From Gemmatimonadota bacterium (lineage in GTDB: Bacteria; Gemmatimonadota; Gemmatimonadetes; Palauibacterales; Palauibacteraceae): a stretch of DNA of 53,779 bases. The notes below the pieces were generated by a model that was not told the DNA's origin, made no database searches, and saw only the letters and a list, made by a program, of their open reading frames with translations. Each line of letters starts with the position of its first letter. Position 1 is the first letter of the stretch. The stretch covers positions 1 to 53,779 of the forward strand of contig JBDHFW010000030.1 of NCBI GenBank assembly GCA_039590175.1. Reading direction: 5' to 3'. Positions 1,270 to 13,352 of this stretch are shown one piece after another. Made by a program: the position numbers and the translations under genes.

Positions 1270-4200
1270 CTAGTTGAACAGGTAGGCGAAACCGAGCTGG
1301 ATCCTCCAGCGCGAGATCTCGCTCAGGTCATCGACGAACGTCCGGTCGACCATGTTGAAGTTGAAGACGGGATCTTCGCCCTCGGACCCCGGGACCACAC
1401 TCAGCGGGTTTGTCGCCGCGGCAGTCGCCACCTGCCTGACGCCCCAGCTCGAGCTGAGCAGGTTTCCGAAGTTCAGGAAATCGAACACGAGGCGGATTTT
1501 GTGCTCGGCGCCGACCCGTCCGAAGTTGAAGTCCTGCATGATCTTCAGATCGATGTTGGACCAGAACGGGTTCAAGAGCCCGAAGCGCTCGGCGATCTCG
1601 CCTCGATGCTGGCTCAGATAGGGATCCTGCTCGATGAACGCGTCGAACGCCGCCCACTGCTGGTTCGGCGTCACCACGTTTCCCTCGGAGTCCGTGAACG
1701 GAGCGAAGGTGATCTCACTCTGGCTCGCGGGGATGTAGATCATATCGTTGAAATTCGATCCGTCCAGGTTGACGTCCCCCGAGTAGAGGAACGAGTACCG
1801 GTTTCCGCCGGCGCCGCGGAACGCGTTCCCGTTCGCCACCTCGAAGAAGACGCTGAAGCTGGTGGCCAGCAGCCGCGACCACTCCACGGGGTAGGTGACC
1901 GTCCCCACGATGCGGTGCTGCTGCCCGAATTCCGAGTGGGAGAGCTCGGGATTGTTCGGGTCCCCCCTGCCATTTCCGATCGGCATCCCCTGCCAGAAGT
2001 CGCCCGCGATCTCGGTGGACTTCTGGATGTTTCTCGCATCCGTGTAGGAGTAGGCTCCCATGAGCGAGAGACCGAAGTCGAAGGTTCGCTGGAACTGTGC
2101 CGTGAAGTTGAGGTTCCAGCCCTCGCTCGTGTTGCCGATCACGCAGATGCAGCTCCCCGGAAAGATGGAAGCGGGATTCAGCCGCTCCCCATAGACGGGC
2201 CGCCCGTCGACCGAGTTGGTCCCGGTGGACCTCCCCAGATCGTAGTCGAGAATGGTGATCGAGTTGATGTCGTTCCCGTAGATGACCTCGAACGTGCCGA
2301 GAACGTCGCCGGGCATCCTCATGTCGAAGGCGATGTCGGTGACCCACGTCTGCGGCCACTTGAAGTCGGGGTCGAACGCGTTGAGGAAGAAGGACTGCTG
2401 GAGAACGGCGGTGTCACAGCGCGTCGCCGTGCAGCCCGTGCCGGTGATCACCGGAGCCGGGTCCGTCCCACCGCTCCAGATGTTCGGGTTGAAGCCCGGA
2501 TTAGAGATATTGTTGCCGCCCCATACAAACGGGATGCGGCCCGTGAACACGCCCGTGCCGCCACGGATCTGAAACGAGCGGTCCTCGGTCGCGGCCCAGT
2601 TGAAGCCGACCCGCGGTGACCAGAGCACCTTCGTTCCCGGAGTCTGGCTCTGGTCGACGACTACCGACTCGTCATTCGCGTCCAGCGCGATCAGGTCGCG
2701 CGACCACTGGTTATCCACGGGGTCGGTGAGGTATAGCGGCAGGTCGATCCGCAGACCGTACGTGAGACTGAAGCTCGGCGAGACTTCGAACTCGTCCTGC
2801 GCATAGAACGATGCCTGGCCGAAGGTGAAGGTCTCTCCCTTGAGTGGGCACTCGCCCGTATCCGCAAAACACGTCGCGCCCGAATCGATCAACCCGAGGA
2901 AATCGATCGGGTCACTCGGGTCCGTGGCGGCGAAGAAGTCATCCAGCGAAAGGAACCCCCCCACGGCCGGGATGAAGCCGTGCCGGAAGAGGTTGAAGGA
3001 GTTGAAGAAGTTGAACGTCTCGAAGTTCGTGCCGAGGGTGATCGAGTGCCGATTGCTGAAGAAGGTGAAGTTGTCGGTGAACTGGAAGACGTTCTGATGG
3101 AGGATGTTGCTGATCGAGAACGGCTCGTGCCCGATCGAGGTGTACGTGACCCCGTCCACCGCGATCTCGACCGTCGGGAACGGTGCGCTGAACGGATCCC
3201 GGTGATCCCGGAAGCGGTTGAAGCTGACGAACGCCCGGTTCGCCCACCCCGTCGAGCGGCTGTTCAGCTCCAGGGCGAATGAGTTCAGGTTGTTGTTGAT
3301 CGCGTAGCCCGTGTTCTGAAACGGCAGGGAGGTGTCGTTCGGCCCACGACCGGACGCAAAGATGGTGAACACGAAGGGGTGGGGCGGGATCTCTCGCTTC
3401 GCGTCCAGGAAGTTATAGCGGAAGACGAAGTTGTCGCTGGGGCTGATGTTCCAGTCGAGCTTGAAGAGGATCTTGTCGCTTTCCGTGGAGTGGGTGAAGC
3501 CTTCGAAGGGGCCGGTCTCGTACCCGTAGACGTTCATCATGCGCTGCGAGATCTGCTCCATGACCGTCGCGTCTACCCGTGACTCGCCCGGCTCAATGTT
3601 ACCGTCCGTGTCGGCGACGAAGTTGGTGCCCGGGTCGTCCCGCCGGTTGATCTCGCCGTTCGCGAAGAAGAAGAGCTTGTCCTTGATGATCGGCCCGCTG
3701 ATGAGGCCGCCATACTGCCCGAAGCTGAGGTCGGGGTTCGCCACGACCGGATCACCACGGACGTTGTTGCCGAGCAGATCCTGATTCCGGAAGTATCCGT
3801 AGCCTTGGAACTGCCAGTCGTTGGTGCCGCTCTTCGACACCAGGTTGACGCTGGCGCCGGTGAACCCGCCCTGCCGGATGTCGAACGGCGCCACCTGCAC
3901 GCTTACCTGGTCGATCGCCGTGTAGGGAATCGGCTCGGAAGCCGTCTGGCCGCCGGGAGCCGGGTCATCCAGCCCGAACGCGTTGCTGAAGTAGGATCCG
4001 TCCAGCGAGATGTTATTGTAGAGCCAGTTGCGGCCGGCTACCGCGAAGTTCCCGTCCGCCCGTGGATCGACACGGACGAGGTCCCGGAAGCTGCGCCGAA
4101 GGTTAGGCAGAATGTCGACCTGTTCGGACGAGACGAACGTGGCCGCGCCTGTCCGGCCGGCGTTCAGCACCGTGCTCTCCCCTACTTCAACCGCCAGTGC

Positions 4201-4578
4201 TTCCACCTCGATTGCTTCGATCTCGAGTTCGAATGCCAGATGCAGATCCTGACCCAGATCCACGTAGACGCCGACTTCGCTGTCCTCGTTGTATCCAATA
4301 ATGGTGGCGGTGACGGTGTACGGGCCGCCGACCCTCATGTTGGGGATCGTCCAAGCACCCCCGCCCCGGCTGCTTGTCCCGTACGAGGTGCCGCTCGGTC
4401 CGTGGACCGCGACGACGTTGGCGTTCGCGATCGGATTCCCGTCCACGTCGAGAACGAAGCCGCTCATCTGCCCCGTCGTCACCCCCTGGGCGAGTAGCCC
4501 CCCCGTCAGGAAGAGAAGAAGAGCCAGCGTCGCGGCTCCGGCTCGCGTAAGAGATCCCAACCAACTGCGTTCACGCAT
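1270..4578 (-). CDS. TonB-dependent receptor, Oar-like, with N-terminal carboxypeptidase-regulatory-like domain
   Basis: Signal peptide, GVTTGQMSG..PIANANVVAVHGPSG, plug motifs (NNISLDG, APFDIRQGGFTGASVNLVSKSGTN), SPRVGFNW, C-terminal WRIQLGFAYLFN. RBS GGAGGGG precedes ATG 4578. Confidence 0.92.
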   Translation of the reverse strand: MRERSWLGSLTRAGAATLALLLFLTGGLLAQGVTTGQMSGFVLDVDGNPIANANVVAVHGPSGTSYGTSSRGGGAWTIPNMRVGGPYTVTATIIGYNEDSEVGVYVDLGQDLHLAFELEIEAIEVEALAVEVGESTVLNAGRTGAATFVSSEQVDILPNLRRSFRDLVRVDPRADGNFAVAGRNWLYNNISLDGSYFSNAFGLDDPAPGGQTASEPIPYTAIDQVSVQVAPFDIRQGGFTGASVNLVSKSGTNDWQFQGYGYFRNQDLLGNNVRGDPVVANPDLSFGQYGGLISGPIIKDKLFFFANGEINRRDDPGTNFVADTDGNIEPGESRVDATVMEQISQRMMNVYGYETGPFEGFTHSTESDKILFKLDWNISPSDNFVFRYNFLDAKREIPPHPFVFTIFASGRGPNDTSLPFQNTGYAINNNLNSFALELNSRSTGWANRAFVSFNRFRDHRDPFSAPFPTVEIAVDGVTYTSIGHEPFSISNILHQNVFQFTDNFTFFSNRHSITLGTNFETFNFFNSFNLFRHGFIPAVGGFLSLDDFFAATDPSDPIDFLGLIDSGATCFADTGECPLKGETFTFGQASFYAQDEFEVSPSFSLTYGLRIDLPLYLTDPVDNQWSRDLIALDANDESVVVDQSQTPGTKVLWSPRVGFNWAATEDRSFQIRGGTGVFTGRIPFVWGGNNISNPGFNPNIWSGGTDPAPVITGTGCTATRCDTAVLQQSFFLNAFDPDFKWPQTWVTDIAFDMRMPGDVLGTFEVIYGNDINSITILDYDLGRSTGTNSVDGRPVYGERLNPASIFPGSCICVIGNTSEGWNLNFTAQFQRTFDFGLSLMGAYSYTDARNIQKSTEIAGDFWQGMPIGNGRGDPNNPELSHSEFGQQHRIVGTVTYPVEWSRLLATSFSVFFEVANGNAFRGAGGNRYSFLYSGDVNLDGSNFNDMIYIPASQSEITFAPFTDSEGNVVTPNQQWAAFDAFIEQDPYLSQHRGEIAERFGLLNPFWSNIDLKIMQDFNFGRVGAEHKIRLVFDFLNFGNLLSSSWGVRQVATAAATNPLSVVPGSEGEDPVFNFNMVDRTFVDDLSEISRWRIQLGFAYLFN

Positions 4579-4854
4579 TTTTCCCCTCCTCATCTCGATT
4601 GGCAGTCGTACCTCGGAAGCGTCCATCCCACGCGAGTCTTTCGGACTCAAGGGCGTGGCGGTCGCAAGGGGTCGATCGGGTGCGTGGGTTGTGAGTGCGC
4701 TAAGAAAGGGCTGGCGAAGAACGCCGGGGTAAGCGCGCTCTGTACTTCGCTGCGGCTCGGGGGGTCACGCCAAACAACCCGTGCACACTAGTCGTGACGG
4801 GCTCGACGGGCAACCGTCCGTTACGGTGGTGTTACCGCCTCCACGGGGCGCGTT

Positions 4855-5592
4855 TCACGAGCCCGCGCCAAGGGCCTCGGCCAGGCGGACGACGGCGTCA
4901 GGCGAGTCGGCACGATAATCGGGCTCGAGCGACCACTCGGAACCTTCGCTTCGGCCATAATCGGCGCCGACGCTGAGCGCCCGAAACGGCATGCCCCGCC
5001 GCTCCAGCTCTACATTTGCGTTCGCGGCGCACTCGGCGTCGACCTCGTGATCTCCCACATACAGAATAACGCCCTGACCGTCGATGCTGAGACGCTCCAC
5101 GCACAGCAGAAACCCGTCGGGCGCCGGCTTCTGTGCGCGCAGGTGGACCTCCTCGTAGCCGACGACCGCGTCGAAGCGATCTCGGAGACGGTGGCCGTTT
5201 AGCGTCTCGTCGATGTTGCGGCGGCTGTTGGCCGAGAAGATGGCGTGCGGAAGGTGGCCAAGGGCGTCCAGGGCTTCCGGGATGCCGGGCAGGATTGGCG
5301 CAGCCGTGGTCTCGGCAATCTGGAATCCGGTCCACAGCCGCCCGGCCTCATCGATCGTCTCCTCGTCCATGCCGAGCTCGGAGCGGTAGAGGTCACGCCA
5401 GTTGCGCGTGCGCCAGAGCGCCTCCTCGTAGCTCTCGAGCGAGCTCAGCATCGGAATGCGATCCCATGCCCCGCGGAGATGCGTCACAATCCGTCGCGTG
5501 ACGGCGAGGTTCTTCTCTCGCGAGTCGACCAGCGTGTTGTCGAAGTCCCAGACGATAGCTCGAAGCGGAGGCTGCGCGGCGTGCATCCGCAC
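4855..5592 (-). CDS. HAD-superfamily hydrolase (phosphoglycolate phosphatase-like)
   Basis: Motif I WDFDNTLVDS, motif II S, motif III KPAP, motif IV YVGDHEVD. Confidence 0.9.
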   Translation of the reverse strand: MRMHAAQPPLRAIVWDFDNTLVDSREKNLAVTRRIVTHLRGAWDRIPMLSSLESYEEALWRTRNWRDLYRSELGMDEETIDEAGRLWTGFQIAETTAAPILPGIPEALDALGHLPHAIFSANSRRNIDETLNGHRLRDRFDAVVGYEEVHLRAQKPAPDGFLLCVERLSIDGQGVILYVGDHEVDAECAANANVELERRGMPFRALSVGADYGRSEGSEWSLEPDYRADSPDAVVRLAEALGAGS

Positions 5593-5692
5593 AGTATGGG
5601 GCGAAGGTCCGAGAGGAGAAAGAAGGTTGGGAGGAAGCGGCGGGGCGTGGTTAGTCTGGAGGGCGGACTGTGACGGGTCGGAGCGGAGGAGC

Positions 5693-5722
5693 CGGGGCGG
5701 GGCGACGGACGCCCCGCCCGGA
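5693..5722. terminator. Strong GC hairpin downstream of small ORF
   Basis: gggcggggcg-acgga-cgccccgccc, a perfect 10-bp stem with no clear U-tract. Confidence 0.45.
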
Positions 5723-5746
5723 TCAGCGGAGGTTGTTTAGCAGAGG

Positions 5747-5848
5747 TTACACGTTTGTCAACCAGACCATCAGGACTTGCCGGAGGGCGCACCAGGCCGC
5801 GAAGCCCACGCCCACCCGGAACATCTGGTTCATCGCTACCGTTGTCAT
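5747..5848 (-). CDS. Putative 33-aa hydrophobic small protein
   Basis: MTTVAMNQMFRVGVGFAAWCALRQVLMVWLTNV. Purine-rich leader (aaagaagagcgg) and a downstream hairpin; it fills an otherwise empty 600-bp gap. Confidence 0.4.
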   Translation of the reverse strand: MTTVAMNQMFRVGVGFAAWCALRQVLMVWLTNV

Positions 5849-6183
5849 CGACCGCTCTTCTTTATCTTGCTTCTTCCGCGAGTCCGTCCACGGCTGAGAA
5901 GCCATTCTCGACTCTGCCGGCCACATGTAATTCACGCCTCGTACCAGCGCGTGCCAGGTATCGGGAATCGCTATAAGCTATTGTAGTGTATGTACTTCGA
6001 GATCTGTGACGTAGCCTGTGGGCGGAGCTTGGCGAAGACTGAAGTGTGGCGTTGACGCGTCAAAAATGGGGGTCGGAGGGGGCACCCTCCTCGCGGGCGT
6101 AAATCGCGGTGGCCGCGCCACACTCCGGCCCCTGCGGCCCGCTAGGGCCGAGCCTCGGCTGGCGCGTCAGCTGGTCTTGGAGA

Positions 6184-7029
6184 TCAGCTGGTCCTGGAAA
6201 GCAGGCTGTAGCTTCTCAGATGGCGGAGGGCGGCGCTGCGGGCCCCCATTGCCTCGTAGAGACGCGAGAGGTTGTAGTGGGCGTCGGCCAGCTCGGGGTC
6301 CGAAGCGACGGCGCGAAGATAGGCCTCGACCGCCCGCTCCACCTTGCCGAGGTCCTCGAGGACCACGCCGAGATTGAAGGCGGCGGTCGCGCTCCCGGGC
6401 TCGGCGGCGAGGGCCGCTCGGTAATGGCCCTCCGCGGCAGTCAGGTTCCCCTCCTCGTGCAGCAGCCGGCCCAGGTTCAGGTGGGCCCCGGGATGATCCG
6501 GCGCCAGCTCCAGAGCTCGGGTGTAGGCCGCTCGGGCTTCCTCTGGGGACCCCGCCTCGAGCTCGCCGCCGATCTCGAACCAGTCGGCCGGGCCCCGCTC
6601 GGGCTCCGGCTGCCTGCGGTGAGGACTCACCAGGCGAAGCGACCGCTCCTGCTCGAGCGCCCCCGGCTGCGCCCGGAGGCCGTCGCCGAGGCCAAGCACG
6701 TACTGGCCGGACGTGGGCTCCCACGCCGACTCGCCCTCCCGGGCGACGACGTGCCCCGTTTCGGAGCTCATGCGCACGGCGGAGAGGGGCCGTTCGGGAA
6801 GCTGTCGCCTGAGCGCGCGGAGGGCCCTCCCGACCTGCGCGGCCGAGAGATCCTCGGCCTCGAGCTCCGCGGCCATCCGGATGAGCACCAGGTCCTGGAA
6901 GGAAAAGTGATAGCCCCGCGAATCGCGCGGCGCGTCCAGGAGGCCGGCTCGGACGAACCGGCGCACCCGGGCGGGCGTGATGCCCAGCAGGTCAGCTACT
7001 TCTCGCGTTCGATACGTATCGACCATCAC
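6184..7029 (-). CDS. MerR-type HTH plus tetratricopeptide repeat protein
   Basis: N-terminal YRTREVADLLGITPARVRRFVRAGLL...YHFSFQDLVLIR (MerR HTH). C-terminal TPRs (AHLNLGRLLH, AAFNLGVVLE, AHYNLSRLYE). Starts 13 nt after the ku stop. Confidence 0.85.
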   Translation of the reverse strand: MMVDTYRTREVADLLGITPARVRRFVRAGLLDAPRDSRGYHFSFQDLVLIRMAAELEAEDLSAAQVGRALRALRRQLPERPLSAVRMSSETGHVVAREGESAWEPTSGQYVLGLGDGLRAQPGALEQERSLRLVSPHRRQPEPERGPADWFEIGGELEAGSPEEARAAYTRALELAPDHPGAHLNLGRLLHEEGNLTAAEGHYRAALAAEPGSATAAFNLGVVLEDLGKVERAVEAYLRAVASDPELADAHYNLSRLYEAMGARSAALRHLRSYSLLSRTS

Positions 7030-7042
7030 GGCCGACGCCGGC

Positions 7043-7906
7043 TCAGCCTCCGCTCGCCGCCTTCTTGGAGGCCTTCTTCTTCGACCCCGCCCGCTTGGCC
7101 GCCTTTCGAGGCTTGGCGGCCGCGGCCTCCTCTTCCTCGCCGAGACTGGCCTTCAACGCGGCCATCAGATCGATGACCTTGGTCTCGGTCTCGATGGTCG
7201 GCGCGGCCGTGATCTCCTCGCCGGTCTCGATCTTCTCATCGATGAGAGCCATGATCCGTTTGCGGACCTCGTCCTCGTACTTCTCGGGCTCGTATGCCCC
7301 CGAGGCGGCCTGCTCGATGAGCTGAACGGCCAGCATCAGCTCCTCGTCCTTCACGTCGGCCTCGCCCAGAGGGACCTCCGAGAACGGGCGCAGCTCGTCG
7401 GAGTAGTGGAGCTGCTCGAGCAGGAGGCCGTCCTCCACCGGGCGCACGAGCACGAGGTACTGCTTGCCTCGGGCGGCATAGGTGGCCAGAGCGGCGCGCC
7501 CCGTCGTCCTTAGTGCCGCGCTCAGAAGCCGGTAAGCGCGCTCCCCGCCTTTGTCAGGCCCGAGGTAGTAGGCGCGGGAGAGGTGGATCCGCTCCACCTG
7601 CTCCAGCGGGATGAATTCGGCGATTTCGATCGTGTTGGTCGCCACCGCGTTGAGCTGCTTGATCTCGTCGGGCTCGAAGAGCACGTACTGGTCCTTGGCG
7701 TACTGGTAGCCCTTCACGAGGTCGTCGCGTTCGACAAGCTTGTCGTCTTTCGGGCAGTAGTGCTTCTGTTTGACCCGCGAACCGCAGTCCTTATGGATCC
7801 AGTTGAAGGATATGTTGGCTGCGGATTCGGCCACCGAGTACAGGCTGGTGGGTACCGAGACGAGGCCGAATGATATCGTAGCCGAACCGATGGGTCGCAT
7901 AGCCAT
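7043..7906 (-). CDS. ku: Ku protein, NHEJ DNA end-binding
   Basis: RPIGSATISFGLVSVP, LVKGYQYAKDQYV, YYLGPDKGGERAYRLL, KVIDLMAALKASL, basic Lys/Ala C-terminal tail. Confidence 0.97.
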   Translation of the reverse strand: MAMRPIGSATISFGLVSVPTSLYSVAESAANISFNWIHKDCGSRVKQKHYCPKDDKLVERDDLVKGYQYAKDQYVLFEPDEIKQLNAVATNTIEIAEFIPLEQVERIHLSRAYYLGPDKGGERAYRLLSAALRTTGRAALATYAARGKQYLVLVRPVEDGLLLEQLHYSDELRPFSEVPLGEADVKDEELMLAVQLIEQAASGAYEPEKYEDEVRKRIMALIDEKIETGEEITAAPTIETETKVIDLMAALKASLGEEEEAAAAKPRKAAKRAGSKKKASKKAASGG

Positions 7907-8016
7907 CTCCGTCGGGTTTGAAGGCGCCTGTCGCTTCCGGGAGCCCGTAACGCGCTACGGCGTTTGGGCTTTCCGGGCCGCCATAAATGTAATACTCGAC
8001 CGTTCGAGCGGAAGCC

Positions 8017-10657
8017 GTGCCTGACAAAGACCAGCTATCGCGATACCGGAAAAAGAGAAGCGCGGACGCCACCCCGGAGCCGGCGGGCGAGGCAGCGGCG
8101 GCGGCGGGGCCATTCGAGCCCGCCGCAACGGACGCGGAACCGGCCGCCTCGGTTCCCCGCGGCGGCGTGTTCTGCGTCCAGCTCCACGACGCCACGCGCC
8201 TGCACTACGACCTCCGTCTGGAGATCGACGGCACCCTCGCCTCATGGGCGGTGCCGAAGGGTCCATCGCTCGACCCGGCCGAGAAACGGCTGGCCGTACA
8301 CGTGGAGGATCATCCGCTCGAGTACGTGGACTTCGAGGGAGTCATCCCCGAAGGCAACTACGGAGCGGGGGCGATGATCCTATGGGACCGCGGGACGTGG
8401 GTTGCCCGTGACGATCCCTCGGAAGGACTGGAGACGGGAAAGATCCTGCTCGAGCTTCGCGGCCTCAAGCTTCGCGGGGTGTGGACCCTGGTGAAGCTGG
8501 CCAAGGCCGAGAACGAGTGGCTCCTCATCCGGGAGAAGAAGTACGTCGGCTCGAACGAAGACCTTCGGGACGAGAGCCTGCCGGCCGGATCCGTGCTCTC
8601 CGGGCTCACCGTCGATCAGCTGGGCACCGGATTCGACCCGGCTTCCCAGCTTCGCTCGGAGCTCGAGGAATCAGGGGCTCGGCCTCGTAGATTGAGAACG
8701 GCCGAGATCGATCTGATGCTGGGAGAGGCGCGGAAGAAGCCCTTCACGCGGGCCGGATGGATCTTCGAGCTCAAGCTGGACGGCTATCGGATGCTCGGCG
8801 GACGGTCCGGAGCCGAGGTCAGCCTGCGTACGCGGAACGGCCACAGCGCGGCAGGCACCTTCCCTGAGGTCGCGCGGGCCGTGGCGGCTCTTCCGTTCGA
8901 CCACTTCGTGCTGGACGGAGAGGTCGTGGCCCACGATGAGGAGGGCCTCCCGAACTTCCAGCGGCTTCAGAAGCGAGCGCAGCTCCGGCGCGGACCCGAC
9001 ATCGAAGCGGGCGCGCTCCGGATGCCCGTCACCTTCTATGCCTTCGACCTGCTTGCCCTTGAGGGTTTTGACCTCAGGCGGCTTCCGCTCGTCACCCGCA
9101 AGGCGATCCTCCGGAAGATGCTGCCTCAAACCGGCCTCATCCGGTACGTGGACCACTTCGAGGACCGGGGCGAGGACGTCTACGAGCACGTCCTCCGCCT
9201 GGAGCTGGAGGGCATCGTCGCCAAGAAGGCCGACAGCTCCTACCGGGGAGGCCGGTCCCGCAACTGGCTCAAGGTGCGGGCGGACCGATCGGACGATTTC
9301 GTCGTCGTCGGCTTCACGCCGCCCAAGAGAGGCCGGACCGGCTTCGGGGCCCTTCACCTGGCGGCCTACGAGGGCGGTGAGCTGCGGTACGCCGGCCGGG
9401 TGGGCGGCGGCTTCAGCGATAGCCAGCTGGCCGAGGTCGCTCAAGAGCTGGCGGCCCTCAAGCGGCCCGAGCCGGCCTTTCTGGATGCCCCCGCGACGCC
9501 GGGCACCGGCGGCAAGAGCGGCGGGCACCGCTGGGTGGAGCCGGAGCTGGTCGTGGAGGTCCGCTACAAGGAGCGCACGGAGGACGGACTCCTCAGGCAA
9601 CCCGTGTTCCTGCGCCTGCGGGAGGACAAGGCCCCTGTCGAGTGCGAGATGCCGCCGTCGAGGGGGAGCGGCCTGGACTCCGCGGCGGGATCCGCCGAGC
9701 CGGCCGGTGAGGGGCGGCCGAGCGCCCCCTCCCGATCCGGGGATTCCGCCAAGGGCCAGCGCGGGACGGCCGCGGCGCCGAAGCTCGTGCTCTCCAACCT
9801 GGACAAGGTCTTCTGGCCGGAGGACGGATACACGAAGGGTGATCTGATCGAGTACTACCGCTCGATCTCGGCCTGGCTCCTTCCCTTCCTCGAGGGTCGG
9901 CCTCTCGTGCTCACCCGGTACCCCGACGGGATCGACGGCAAGAACTTCTACCAGAAGGACGCGCCCGACTTCGCCCCCGACTGGATTCGGACCGTCGCCA
10001 TCTGGAGCGACAGCTCGAGCCGCGAGCTCGAGTACTTCGTCTGCGAGGACGAAGCTTCCCTTCTCTACCTCGCCAACCTGGGCACCATCCCGCTGCACAT
10101 CTGGATGAGCCGAGTGACGGAGCTGGAACGTCCGGACTTCTGCGTCCTGGACCTGGATCCCAAGGAGGCACCCTTCGAGCACGTGATCGAGATCGCCCTC
10201 GCCATCCGTTCACTGTGCCGGGAGATCGAGCTCCCCGAGCGGATCCACCGGACTTCACATCCTGATCCCGCTCGGGACGCGCTACACCTACGAGCAGTCG
10301 CGGACCGTCGGCCAGCTGCTGGCGCAGATCATCGTCCAGCGGCGGCCGGCGATCGCGACCCTTCAGCGCAACCTCACCGCTCGCCAGGGCAAGGTCTACA
10401 TCGACTATCTCCAGAACCGGCGCGGCCAGCTCATCGTGGCGCCGTACAGCGTCAGGCCACTCCCCGGAGCGCCCGTCTCCGCCCCTCTCCGGTGGCGAGA
10501 GGTGAAGCCCGGCCTCGAGATCGGTAAACACACCATCCGGACGCTCCCCCGTCGGGTAAGGCGGATGAAGGACGATCCGATCCTGCCGGTGCTCGAGCTC
10601 GAGACCGATCTGGCCGCGGTCCTTCTCCGCCTCCAGGAATCCCTGCTCGAGGAGTAG
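8017..10657 (+). CDS. ligD: DNA ligase D (phosphoesterase-ligase-polymerase), frameshifted near 10237
   Basis: PE domain HDATRLHYDLRLE/SWAVPKGPSLDP; ligase ELKLDGYR, EGIVAKK, WLKVR; polymerase LSNLDKVFWP, RYPDGIDG, LDLDP. The continuation SGSTGLHI...VYIDYLQN...APYSVRP is in the next frame from 10238 to the stop at 10657. Confidence 0.95.
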
Positions 10658-10711: not shown

Positions 10712-11179
10712 CTACTGCACGACGATCGTCGCCCCGACCATCTCGTTCGGGTGCACCTCGCAGAAGTAGACCCACGTCCCGAGCACGTTGGGCTCGAAGA
10801 CGGACGTGCCCCCGTTGCTCAGAAGGCCGGTGCGGATCGTGTTGCCGCCGGCCGGCTCCTCGTTGCTCGTGGCGGTGTGCTGGACGTTGTCGCGGTTCAC
10901 CCAGCCGACGGTCTGGCCGAGCTGAATGGTGACGTCGTCTCCTCCACCCGGCGCGTTGAACGCGATGTTCTCCATCTCGATCACGACGTCCGCGTCGGGC
11001 TCTCCACCCCCGCCGTTGCCCCCTCCGTTCCCTCCGCCATCATCGCCGTTCCCTCCACCGTTGGTGGGGGCGTCGCCTCCGCAGCCGACCAGGAAGACGG
11101 CCGCGCCACCGAGGAAGGCCACGAAAGTTCGTCGATCCACGGACGAATCCACATAGGAGTCTGATGAGGTCTTGCTCAT
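10712..11179 (-). CDS. Plastocyanin/azurin-family cupredoxin, predicted Tat-exported lipoprotein
   Basis: DRRTFV Tat motif and LVGC lipobox, Gly-rich linker, type-1 Cu ligands HTAT...YFCEVHPNEM. RBS GGAGG. Confidence 0.88.
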   Translation of the reverse strand: MSKTSSDSYVDSSVDRRTFVAFLGGAAVFLVGCGGDAPTNGGGNGDDGGGNGGGNGGGGEPDADVVIEMENIAFNAPGGGDDVTIQLGQTVGWVNRDNVQHTATSNEEPAGGNTIRTGLLSNGGTSVFEPNVLGTWVYFCEVHPNEMVGATIVVQ

Positions 11180-11229
11180 GTCGGTTCCTCCATCCTTGAG
11201 GTGCACAAACGCCGCTCGTCGGCAGGTCC

Positions 11230-12379
11230 TTACGGTGCCGATTCGGGCTCAGGGGCGGACGTCACGACGATCGTCGCCTTCATGACCGGATGCGGGATGC
11301 AGTGATAGGGATGGGCACCCGGCTCTTCGAACGTGAACGAGAAGCTCTCGCCCGGAGCGAGCGCCGGAGATCCCCAGACGTCCGCGTCGGACGTGCTCGT
11401 GTGGACCACGGGATCCTTGTTAATCCAGCGCACCGTCGTCCCCGGCGGGACTCCAGCGCACCGTCGTCCCCGGCGGGACTCGGAGCTCCGAAGGGCCGAA
11501 GGAGAAGCGCGAGATATGGACCTCCACGACGGCGCCGCCCGGCGGCGGCTCGAAGTCCTCCTCGGCGACCTCCTCGGGCTTGAAGATCTTTCCCCAGCGC
11601 GCGAAGCCGCTGAACGGGACGGTAAACTCGAAGCCCCAGAACACGGCCCCCTTGACGCCCGCGCTCGCGACGTTCGTGGCCACCAGCGAGAAGGTGTGTG
11701 GCGTGAACGGGATACCGATGCCGAGCTGGGCGCTCCAGGCGGCGGGGACGCCGTCCAATCCGGCGACGATGCCTCCCACGTCGCCCCCAATCTGCAGGTA
11801 GCGAGTGATCCTGAAGCCGAGGCCGCCGGCGAGAGCGAGCGAGGCGTTGTCGACGCTGTCCGGCACGTTGTAAGGGTTCGTGAATCCACGGACGGCGCCC
11901 AGGATCTGAGCGGGACCGAACCGCGTCTCCCCGGACACCTCGGCATCGAAGCTCTTGGACGCTCCGTTGTATGCTCCCAGAACCGAGAGCGACGGCGCGC
12001 CGTTCCCAACTCCCCTGATCGGCGCCCACTTCAGGAAGGGCTGCCACTCGTTGAAGTTGGACTGGACCAGGGAGTTGCTGCTGTAGCGCACCCCCACCAT
12101 CGAGCCCGAGAACAGCCCGATGTCGAGCTCGAAGGTCGGGTAGTTGACGACCTTGCCGTCCGTGAAGATGTCTCCGATCGTCGCGTCGCCCGCGACCTCG
12201 AAGCGGTGGGCGAACTGGAAGTAGACCGTCCACGGGGAGGTCACCCAGGTGCCCTGGATGTTGGGTGTCCGCTCGGTAACCGGCTGCGCGGTACCCGTCC
12301 CGCCCGGCAAGAGCGTGCCGGCACACGTGGACGCCGCGAGAAGGATCGTTCCGGCGCTCGGTCCGCGCATCCTGATCAT
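11230..12379 (-). CDS. Outer-membrane beta-barrel (DUF5777-like) fused to C-terminal cupredoxin; frameshifted by 28-nt duplication
   Basis: Signal peptide, FQFAHRF and amphipathic strands (ORF 11420..12433). Removing one repeat copy gives ...ELRVPPGTTVRWINKDPVVHTSTS...YHCIPHPVMKATIVV. Confidence 0.8.
11425..11480. repeat. Perfect 28-nt tandem duplication
   Basis: ccagcgcaccgtcgtccccggcgggact at 11425-11452 and 11453-11480. Confidence 0.95.
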
Positions 12380-12578
12380 CGAGTCTCGCTTGGAAGCCCC
12401 GCTCAAGGACCTGTTGTGAGAACGGCCGGACACGACCGTTCGTGACCGGGCCGCTTATTTCAAGTTCATGTGAAAGCAAGTCATCGCGGGTGCGTCTGGT
12501 TCCCCGGCGGGCGAGGAAACCAGCGGTGGAAGGTGCAGCTGTGGAGGATCGCCGGCGGTCGGTCGGCGCCGACCGCGG

Positions 12579-13352
12579 CTACCCCCCTTCGGTGCTGAAA
12601 CGGTCCAGGAAGGCCTGCTCGCGCTGGCTGAGACCTCCGGCGCCGGCGGCCTGGAGCTTCTCCCAGATCTCGTCGAAGCGCTCGCGGTTGATCTCGTGCA
12701 TCGCCTCCCGATCGATGCTGGACCAGCGCTCCAGCTTCGTGCCCTCGGTCTCCCAGCGCCGCTTGGCCGTTCCGTCCGCGACCGCCTTGAACTTCTTGGC
12801 CGGCAACCGGCTCTCCGTCCAACGCAGGTAGAGGTAACCCCCGACAAAGCCGCCGAGGTGAGCGAAGTGGGCGACACCGTCCTGCGCCCCGCCGAAGCCG
12901 CCGTACAGGGAGAGGGCCGTCATCACGATCACGAGCACACGGGCCTCCACGGGAAGCACGCCCCATATGTAAATGCGCTCCCGCGGCCAGTAGCGGGCGA
13001 AGCCGAGCAACACGCCGAAGACCGCGCCCGATGCGCCGATGATCGCGGTGTTCGGACTGAACGGAATGGACAGCAGTGCGCCGGCGACGCCGCTGATGAA
13101 GTAGAGGTAGAGAAAGCCCTTCGAGCCGAGGCGCATCTCGAGCCGTGGACCGAAGAAGAAGAGGGCGATCATGTTGAACAGCAGGTGCATGAAGCCACCG
13201 TGGAGGAACATGTACGTGACCAGAGTCCACGGACGATAAGGGAGGAGCACCGGCACGAACATCAGCGCCCGCATGACCTCGAGCGATGAGCTGCTCACGA
13301 AGAACATCACGACGTTGGCGATGAGCAGGCGGCGGACCCAGGGCGTCATCAT
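12579..13352 (-). CDS. Rhomboid family intramembrane serine protease
   Basis: PWTLVTYMFLHGGFMHLLFNM, GASG catalytic Ser, AHFAHLGG catalytic His, soluble helical C-terminal tail. Confidence 0.95.
   Translation of the reverse strand: MMTPWVRRLLIANVVMFFVSSSSLEVMRALMFVPVLLPYRPWTLVTYMFLHGGFMHLLFNMIALFFFGPRLEMRLGSKGFLYLYFISGVAGALLSIPFSPNTAIIGASGAVFGVLLGFARYWPRERIYIWGVLPVEARVLVIVMTALSLYGGFGGAQDGVAHFAHLGGFVGGYLYLRWTESRLPAKKFKAVADGTAKRRWETEGTKLERWSSIDREAMHEINRERFDEIWEKLQAAGAGGLSQREQAFLDRFSTEGG

Follow-up and report, generated by a model that had tools for sequence, protein, structure and literature searches.

A MerR-type helix-turn-helix and TPR protein gene is the conserved second gene of ku operons in Gemmatimonadota and allied phyla

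Non-homologous end joining (NHEJ) in bacteria is described, in the abstracts of three papers, as the work of Ku and LigD alone (PMC7969030, PMC12784961, PMC5124664). The locus analyzed here carries both components, a ku gene and a divergent three-domain ligD, and differs from that description by a conserved third gene in the ku operon. It lies in a stretch of 53,779 nucleotides (nt) from a Gemmatimonadota bacterium of the Palauibacteraceae (GenBank assembly GCA_039590175.1, contig JBDHFW010000030.1, positions 1 to 53,779), which is referred to below, at its full length, as the window. The list of open reading frames (ORFs) places ku and a 281-aa gene on the minus strand and ligD on the plus strand. 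The product of the 281-aa gene, hereafter the partner, combines an N-terminal MerR-type winged helix-turn-helix (HTH) domain with C-terminal tetratricopeptide repeats (TPRs), and the sources label it only 'tetratricopeptide repeat protein' or 'hypothetical protein'. Two studies that compare Ku and NHEJ across bacteria (PMC7719229 and PMC11936186) contain, in their main texts, no mention of MerR, tetratricopeptide, TPR or Gemmatimon, and full-text literature searches returned nothing on bacterial Ku having a MerR or TPR partner. The original prediction, which was made from the letters of this locus, had named no characterized MerR-TPR NHEJ factor, and this held, with no source name, NCBIfam model or paper found.

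Among described regulators, TnrA and GlnR are proteins of Bacillus nitrogen control in which glutamine synthetase acts on a C-terminal tail to set DNA binding. The partner resembles them in having a MerR-type winged HTH without a long effector domain, and they are the best structural matches of its N-terminal domain (N-domain). They share only 16–18% identity with it, however, and have no beta meander, WxPESGQ motif, TPR or ku linkage. With the canonical MerR regulators (MerR, CueR, SoxR and BmrR) the partner has in common a Pfam MerR_1 match above the cut-off and the DNA-binding fold (Z 7.3–8.9), but it is predicted to carry a beta meander in place of the coiled coil and TPRs in place of the metal or drug sensor. 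The RRNPP proteins (PlcR, NprR and Rap-like) likewise join an N-terminal HTH to C-terminal peptide-binding TPRs. They occur only in Firmicutes, however, have longer TPR arrays and an HTH of the XRE type, and are tied to quorum peptides and not to ku, whereas the HTH of the partner is MerR-type; the Pfam and NCBIfam scans found no RRNPP family in it. If the partner acts at DNA breaks, an alternative weighed below, it would be like XLF, PAXX and APLF in being a non-catalytic Ku partner that is dispensable for the core chemistry, although it has no homology to them, their folds are different and its own binding to Ku is hypothetical.

A scan of one genome per species gave at least 574 relatives of the partner among 600 matched stretches, of which the 80 best-scoring loci were analyzed. 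Being the closest relatives of the query (43–87% identity), they are not a random sample; the genomes are nearly all metagenome-assembled genomes (MAGs), and related genomes are not independent. Neighboring genes were located by tblastn with the window proteins. In 74 of the 80 loci, or 74 of the 77 that could be assessed, ku was the gene immediately upstream and had the same orientation. The six others comprise three loci with less than 260 nt of upstream DNA (L029, L056 and L068), one with no ku within 8 kb (L054), one in which ligD adjoins the partner gene and ku is absent (L073) and one in which ku is 3.4 kb off (L026). The distance from the ku stop to the partner tblastn match was −3 to 225 nt, and in nearly all relatives the partner starts ~0–140 nt from ku, with tight spacings of −3 nt (L004), 2 nt (L070 and L072) and 5–6 nt (L048, L022 and L065). 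The widest same-strand spacing besides L026 was observed at L117 (G249:C1:2636500-2643300), where ~600 nt and a small signal-peptide-like ORF separate the two genes. By tblastn, ligD was upstream and divergent in 44 of the 80 loci. All-against-all ORF clustering returned the partner (79 loci), ku (75) and ligD (38) as the recurrent real neighbors and no others; the remaining large ORF clusters were opposite-strand shadows of these three genes and were set aside.

The record titles assign the 80 loci to Gemmatimonadota, Acidobacteriota (mostly Thermoanaerobaculia), Myxococcota (Polyangia and Anaeromyxobacter), Binatia, Planctomycetota and Acidiferrobacterales, and they span at least six phyla (Gemmatimonadota, Acidobacteriota, Myxococcota, Binatota, Planctomycetota and Pseudomonadota). 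Across phyla, the partner retains 44–52% identity, compared with 47–66% for Ku in the same loci. A separate sample of 20 of the 41 Acidobacteriota carriers, mostly weaker matches, had ku upstream on the same strand at 16 loci, divergent at one and missing at three, two of the three being short forms of the gene. These results indicate that the linkage between ku and the partner is far beyond chance, and that the partner gene is the conserved second gene of the ku operon. The conserved ku linkage expected from the window alone was thus confirmed in both samples: homologs are not rarely near ku, and the neighborhood survey proposed beforehand found ku adjacency to dominate, with ligD present at 44 of 80 loci.

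We also counted the partner across genomes. In Gemmatimonadota, the N-domain profile matched 56 of 301 genomes, with one copy each, and Ku was detected in 208 of 301. Ku was present in 55 of the 56 genomes with the N-domain versus 153 of the 245 without it; the exception (G167) has no Ku, and ku is also absent within 3 kb of its partner gene. Among the 46 genomes with coordinates for both genes, read from two tables, ku was on the same contig and strand and just upstream in 45. In Acidobacteriota, the N-domain was found in 41 of 251 genomes at E<=1e-25 and Ku in 94 of 251 at E<=1e-30, with Ku in 36 of the 41 carriers versus 58 of the 210 others. These tallies include genomes flagged as unpublished (G182, G157, G057 and G097 in Gemmatimonadota, G182 being among the 45, and G329, G457 and G354 in Acidobacteriota). 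The partner gene is nearly restricted to Ku-bearing genomes. It formed 277 clusters at 50% identity with E<=1e-30; with the gene this common, its function would concern a considerable part of the bacteria living in soil and sediment.

The distribution of the partner was then compared with a Ku tree of 96 rows (58 partnered and 38 unpartnered from 39 Gemmatimonadota stretches). Partnered rows were taken only from loci whose tblastn match ran from residue 1 on a start codon, and L005, in which the ORF ran on, was omitted. A clade of 10 distant Ku copies (34–40% identity, beside a ligase-only gene) was never partnered, even in genomes with a partnered ku elsewhere (G019, G125, G139 and G170). In the main Ku clade, Gemmatimonadota grouped together, with partnered and unpartnered rows interleaved. 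The partner label required at least 9 changes on this tree, 3 of them forced by starred branches, as against a mean of 30 changes for shuffled labels; 0 of 500 shuffles were as low as 9. The partner therefore pairs with one Ku clade only, and its gene is accessory, having been repeatedly gained or lost while ku stayed. Because ku was retained through this repeated gain and loss, the partner is dispensable for the core end-joining reaction. One partnered ku in a single-contig genome (G127:C1:2658339-2658878) contains one in-frame TAG inside the Ku domain match.

Pfam MerR_1 matched residues 6–72 of the partner (E 2.8e-10, 40.6 bits against a cut-off of 21.6), and Pfam TPR families, namely TPR_16 (E 9.9e-23), TPR_11, TPR_1, TPR_2 and others, span residues 157–262. 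Among 8000 candidates scored, 1899 were homologs of the partner at E<=1e-3. An AlphaFold2 (AF2) model of the whole protein, built on 99 homologs, had a mean predicted local distance difference test (pLDDT) score of 88.2, and the N-terminal 118 residues modelled alone gave the same picture (pLDDT 87). In the AF2 model, the winged HTH is made up of helices 8–15, 19–27, 44–58 and 63–76 with a wing at 39–42. DSSP assigned the strands 86–90, 93–98 and 101–104 and a bridge at 109–110, and the pLDDT was ~90 as far as residue 110. The N-domain model was compared by VIA-align to 48,161 solved chains. The best match was TnrA (4r22; Z 9.9, root-mean-square deviation (rmsd) 2.0, 79 residues aligned); GlnR (7tea) scored Z 9.2, and RacA (5i41), CvkR (7xn2), CueR (6xh7) and TipAN (2vz4) scored Z 8.8–9.0. 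The low-rmsd alignments to MerR-type structures covered residues 1 to ~80, and the beta meander was without a match. Since these alignments end near residue 80, the meander would replace the coiled-coil dimerization helix of MerR proteins. Foldseek gave no match for the N-domain at E<=0.001; with the whole model, its best matches were O-GlcNAc transferase and consensus TPRs (E ~1e-8). In the homolog alignment, N185, N219 and N253 of the TPRs are invariant at a 34-residue spacing; in the TPRs of O-GlcNAc transferase, asparagine side chains at this repeat position line the peptide-binding groove. On these models, the partner is a protein with a MerR-like DNA-binding domain that stands outside the canonical MerR regulators, because a beta meander occupies the place of the coiled coil and TPRs that of the effector domain. 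The coordinates of these parts and of the neighboring genes are collected in Table 1.

Table 1 Features of the ku–ligD locus in the window
Feature	Position	Strand	Basis
MerR-HTH/beta-meander/TPR (partner) gene	6184-7029	-	281-aa ORF, Pfam, AF2 model
Four TPRs, eight helices, residues 147-280	6190-6591	-	AF2 model; Foldseek E ~1e-8
Linker, residues 115-146	6592-6687	-	pLDDT <50 at residues 118-137
Three-stranded beta meander (residues 86-104) and motif (103-114), predicted	6688-6774	-	DSSP, both AF2 models, column counts
MerR-type winged HTH, residues 6-76	6802-7014	-	Pfam MerR_1; VIA-align Z 8-9.9
ku, 287 aa, leading gene of two-gene operon	7043-7906	-	Pfam Ku E 1.9e-47
ku–ligD spacer, 110 nt	7907-8016	.	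between divergent genes
ligD with frame break	8017-10657	+	Pfam domains; 14 nt missing behind 10235

Other resources added little to this picture. Only 'MerR family' clusters came back for the partner from the ESM Atlas, NCBIfam gave just generic TPR models below their cut-offs, and two PADLOC matches near E 1e-4 were disregarded as not credible. A search with residues 1–125 for longer proteins found no fusion form at E<=1e-8, which is weak evidence. Two metagenome proteins (P0204/P0270) consist of a 286-aa ORF in which the middle of Ku is joined without a break to the MerR domain and the frame stops within the linker. The P0204 representative (2 members on 3 contigs of ~2 kb) has neither end of Ku, that is, neither its N-terminus nor its tail, and no TPRs; it was rejected as a Rosetta-stone fusion and looks like a deletion-fused, decayed locus. 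Short relatives of 140–178 aa were also seen (L132:2468-2962(-), L133:2478-2900(+), G304:C3:11439-11735 and G301:C4:30604-30906). They lack TPRs but retain the WxPESGQ motif together with the MerR domain and the beta part, and in the first two, L132 and L133, a ku gene is absent within 2.5 kb.

The beta meander ends in the motif WEPTSGQYVLGL (residues 103–114, bases 6688–6723), of the form W-x-P-E-S-G-Q-x-x-h-x-h, where h is hydrophobic; the pattern W.P..GQ..h.h is present in 89 of the 99 homologs. Column counts over these 99 were 98 for W103, 93 for P105, 89 for S107, 96 for G108, 99 for Q109, 99 for L/F/I/M at 112, 74 for D113 and 99 for F/L/I at 114, and the position directly after Q109 was L/V/I/M in 55 and A in 20. 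The hexapeptide of the window itself reads QYVLGL. In most homologs the motif is followed by a conserved stretch, D-F-x-V-x-E-L-A-x-x-V/A-A-P-L-x-R-R, which the subclade of the window has lost. Peptides that bind the beta sliding clamp follow the consensus QL[SD]LF or QLxLxL, the Q-L-x-L-x-L type occurring in Hda and Pol IV. Hexapeptide positions 1, 4 and 6 match this consensus, which is low in information, in 99 of 99 homologs.

The partner could thus be imagined as a sliding-clamp tether, in which Q109-x-x-h-x-h would bring a Ku-linked protein or Ku-bound ends to DnaN, but on the sequence and model evidence we consider this improbable. The invariant glutamine and the hydrophobic residues at +3 and +5 are what such a peptide would need, and the +1 position is mostly L/V/I/M or A. 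Model confidence also drops directly after the motif, from a pLDDT of ~90 at residues 101–110 to 57–58 at residues 111–120, and in short TPR-less relatives of 140–164 aa the motif is retained close to the end of the protein (L132 reads YTWDPESGQGFIDF and L133 reads MTWMPESGQILLNF). However, W103-x-P-E-S-G-Q lies inside the confidently predicted beta meander with its bridge at 109–110, the alternating hydrophobics F-D-F-x-V would equally fit a fourth strand or a dimer interface, and the conservation in most homologs extends ~15 residues further, beyond the need of a clamp peptide. The pattern itself is low in information, and a literature search turned up, at the level of its listings, no link between NHEJ and the clamp. 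The original prediction had described this segment as a clamp-motif-like linker between HTH and TPRs. Its motif is indeed conserved and clamp-like, whereas its placing in a linker is not supported: the first half, W103–Q109, falls within the predicted beta meander, and a longer conserved stretch follows the motif in most homologs.

From these genome and sequence comparisons, the partner is very probably tied to Ku in function, working with it or on it. The reading that we favor, at a probability of roughly 0.45, is that of a Ku-coupled DNA-binding adaptor, namely an NHEJ-specific regulator whose TPRs and linker would read a protein signal, most plausibly Ku. The HTH would bind DNA at the ku control region, and at that of ligD where the latter is adjacent; the TPRs and the motif with its linker would sense the signal, most plausibly Ku through its basic C-terminal arm; and the output of the ku operon would thereby follow the demand for Ku. 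Such logic would be like that of TnrA and GlnR, in which a partner protein controls a minimal MerR domain, and like that of the peptide-binding HTH-TPR regulators.

Several observations on the operon, the ku control region and the Ku tail weigh against this reading. The partner gene is second in the operon, and many autoregulators come first or are divergent. The protein structure is wholly predicted, and the genomes behind the comparisons are, as said, nearly all MAGs. In 70 ku upstream regions, a search for 9-mers with one mismatch found no cross-locus operator; the top 9-mers occurred in 29 sequences versus 19–23 in shuffles and were GC-rich words within the ligD coding sequence. Many loci have an AT-rich −10-like box 6–12 nt before the ku ATG, for example TATATTACGCCTTATG or GTTACATTTGTCGG...ATG (L005, L007, L010, L012, L027, L038, L051, L080 and others), and the same close box precedes unpartnered ku genes (L092, L097, L103 and L106). 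Because unpartnered ku genes have it too, the box reads as a trait of the ku promoter and not as a site of the partner protein. Its position 6–12 nt from the ATG suggests short or absent ku leaders, with leaderless or near-leaderless ku mRNAs in many loci. In the spacer of the window, an AT-rich −10-like box (TATTACATT, ~7990–7982, minus strand) is found ~80 nt upstream of ku, and the leader in this clade would be ~80 nt.

Palindromes gave no better candidate. The spacer palindrome CTCGA-ACGG-TCGAG is common to the window and L002 and absent from L003, and palindromes of single clades that had been spotted by eye were rejected as operators, as they are not kept in the next clade. A sigma-70-like promoter scan of 5500–8150 returned 0 sites, and a long-spacer MerR promoter with a palindrome was found neither at the window locus nor across the 70 upstream regions. 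That no shared word or palindrome was found is a mild argument against a conserved sequence-specific operator, even if such sites may drift. The role originally proposed for the partner, control of the promoter region between the divergent ku and ligD, is therefore unsupported: no cross-locus operator was detected, and since ligD is adjacent in only 44 of 80 loci, the tie of the partner is to ku and not to the shared spacer.

The Ku tail, defined as the residues after the conserved IIDLMEALKASL stretch, was scored for a strict motif, RKP[APTG][KRQTA], and a loose one, [KR][KR]P..[KR]. The 58 partnered tails of the Ku tree had the strict motif in 49 cases and the loose one in 44 (median length 39 residues), and the 28 unpartnered tails of the same clade in 2 and 5 cases, respectively (median length 22.5). 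In Acidobacteriota, the 15 partnered tails had the strict motif in 8 cases and the loose one in 9, and among the 30 unpartnered tails only one had the strict motif. On a tree built without the tails, however, this covariation amounts to 4 independent contrasts, ~3.5 of them concordant and 0 opposite (p>=0.125). The loose basic-Pro motif is common in unpartnered Ku clades and occurs in 15 of the 30 unpartnered Acidobacteriota tails, the unpartnered Acidobacteriota Ku copies belong mostly to other Ku clades (27–41% identity), and the tail of the window Ku, AKPRKAAKRAG, is without the strict motif. For these four reasons, the evidence for the tail motif as a TPR ligand is weak, and it is a possible lead only. 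A complex prediction with 2 Ku and the MerR-TPR protein scored 0.19 against a mark of 0.32; it was run without controls and counts neither way on binding.

As a tentative possibility, the partner might join Ku at DNA ends instead of acting at a promoter. Its TPRs would then hold the Ku C-terminal arm or LigD and its HTH would bind the flanking duplex without strict sequence specificity, aiding synapsis or helping Ku to be retained or released, a service that XLF, PAXX and APLF perform for the eukaryotic protein. The association with ku rather than with the ku–ligD spacer and the lack of a conserved operator in the 70 upstream regions point this way, and the near or overlapping ku stop and partner start in several loci would fit coupled translation. 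Across phyla, conservation is strong at surfaces outside the HTH (motif, linker and asparagine ladder), the Ku tail is longer in partnered than in unpartnered rows, and the N-domain also matches MerR-like domains that do not serve transcription: RacA (5i41), pSK1 Par (8csh), CbpM (3ucs) and DafA (9dvi). Most MerR-type domains are nevertheless transcription factors, the covariation of the tail motif is weak, and end joining should not need the partner, whose gene was gained or lost at least 9 times on the Ku tree while Ku persisted. It is highly improbable that the protein is an unrelated regulator merely riding in the ku operon, such as one that governs stress genes at other places in the genome and plays no part in NHEJ. 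Three full-length copies without a nearby ku (L054, L136 and G167/L116) and the two solitary short forms L132 and L133 would suit such a rider, but same-strand adjacency held across six phyla at 44–52% identity and near confinement to Ku-bearing genomes are hard to explain without a shared function.

A rather unlikely extension of these models would be a three-protein NHEJ system in Gemmatimonadota, Acidobacteriota, Myxococcota and allied phyla, in which the TPRs contact the Ku arm, the HTH contacts DNA and Q-x-x-h-x-h recruits the clamp or another partner; if true, it would be a prokaryotic counterpart of the eukaryotic Ku-binding scaffolds. The control of bacterial NHEJ, that is, how it is switched on, restricted to non-growing cells and cleared from DNA, is largely an open question. 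With its DNA- and peptide-binding modules, its pairing with one Ku clade and its spread over at least six phyla, the partner is a concrete candidate for the missing control or scaffold layer. The data suggest that in many bacteria of soil and sediment the 'two-protein' end joining involves a third, so far unstudied partner or a dedicated regulator, which may also be relevant to the transfer of NHEJ modules into other hosts for genome editing.

At the window locus, the layout of three genes, the 13-nt gap between ku and the partner gene and the divergent ligD had been read correctly at the outset, as the ORFs and Pfam matches agree on all of them. The gap runs from the ku stop to the GTG start of the partner (positions 7030–7042); an ATG at 7026 is an alternative start, and the database copy P0001 is 280 aa. 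The window Ku scored 272 bits on the NCBIfam Ku_bact equivalog (cut-off 150). A terminator scan found no terminator-like site between ku and the partner gene on the minus strand, and Rfam gave 0 matches in 5400–8200. The host MAG, 83% complete, comprises 308 contigs with a total of 3.43 Mb and has one Ku match and one full-length copy of the partner gene.

The ligD gene contains the Pfam domains LigD_N, DNA_ligase_A_M, DNA_ligase_A_C and LigD_Prim-Pol (phosphoesterase, ligase and primase-polymerase). The earlier reading of ligD at 8017–10657 was right in its divergent orientation and wrong in treating it as one open frame to 10657. The frame from 8017 runs as nonsense to 10527, and the true C-terminus is in another frame at ~10236–10657. 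Compared with L003, L009 and L045, 14 nt are missing at 10235–10236, between ...GAGCTCCCC and GAGCGG..., a gap that deletes four residues and part of a fifth before the SGSTGLH stretch and shifts the frame. Contigs of two public runs of one study, X1 and X2, have a 14-letter insertion behind 10235 and differ in 3 other letters over ~140–210 aligned bases, and loose ends in X4, from another study, read the identical 14 letters. Because near-identical contigs from public runs carry these letters, the break is a strain deletion or an assembly error, and this locus type has an intact ligD.

The ku genes that lack the partner have features of their own. In Gemmatimonadota lineages whose ku has no MerR-TPR partner, the ku stop coincides with the start of a DUF72 gene or is overlapped by it (for example L095:3309-4016, Pfam DUF72 E 5.6e-58), and DUF72 just after ku was also observed at L093, L098, L099, L108, L118, L120, L121, L122 and L127. 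A DUF72 cluster is likewise present in the flanks of 22 of the 80 partnered loci, at variable places, and DUF72 may be a second recurrent neighbor of ku. Upstream of the distant Ku paralog, a strong conserved palindrome, TTATCAACAA-N3-TTGTTGATAA, is followed by repeated GTGTGGA(A/T)AA words (L090, L104, L105, L110–L113 and L115), and this may be the operator of another regulator.

Around the window locus, the ~590 nt downstream of the partner gene (5593–6183) showed no convincing ORF and no Rfam match. Two ORFs adjoining ligD, 10712–11206(-) and 11420–12433(-), had no Pfam family at E<=1e-4; the first of them has a signal-like N-terminus followed by a Gly/Asn-rich linker. Further out, the locus is flanked by a TonB-dependent-receptor-like barrel (1270–4650), a HAD hydrolase (4855–5592) and a rhomboid gene (12579–13352).

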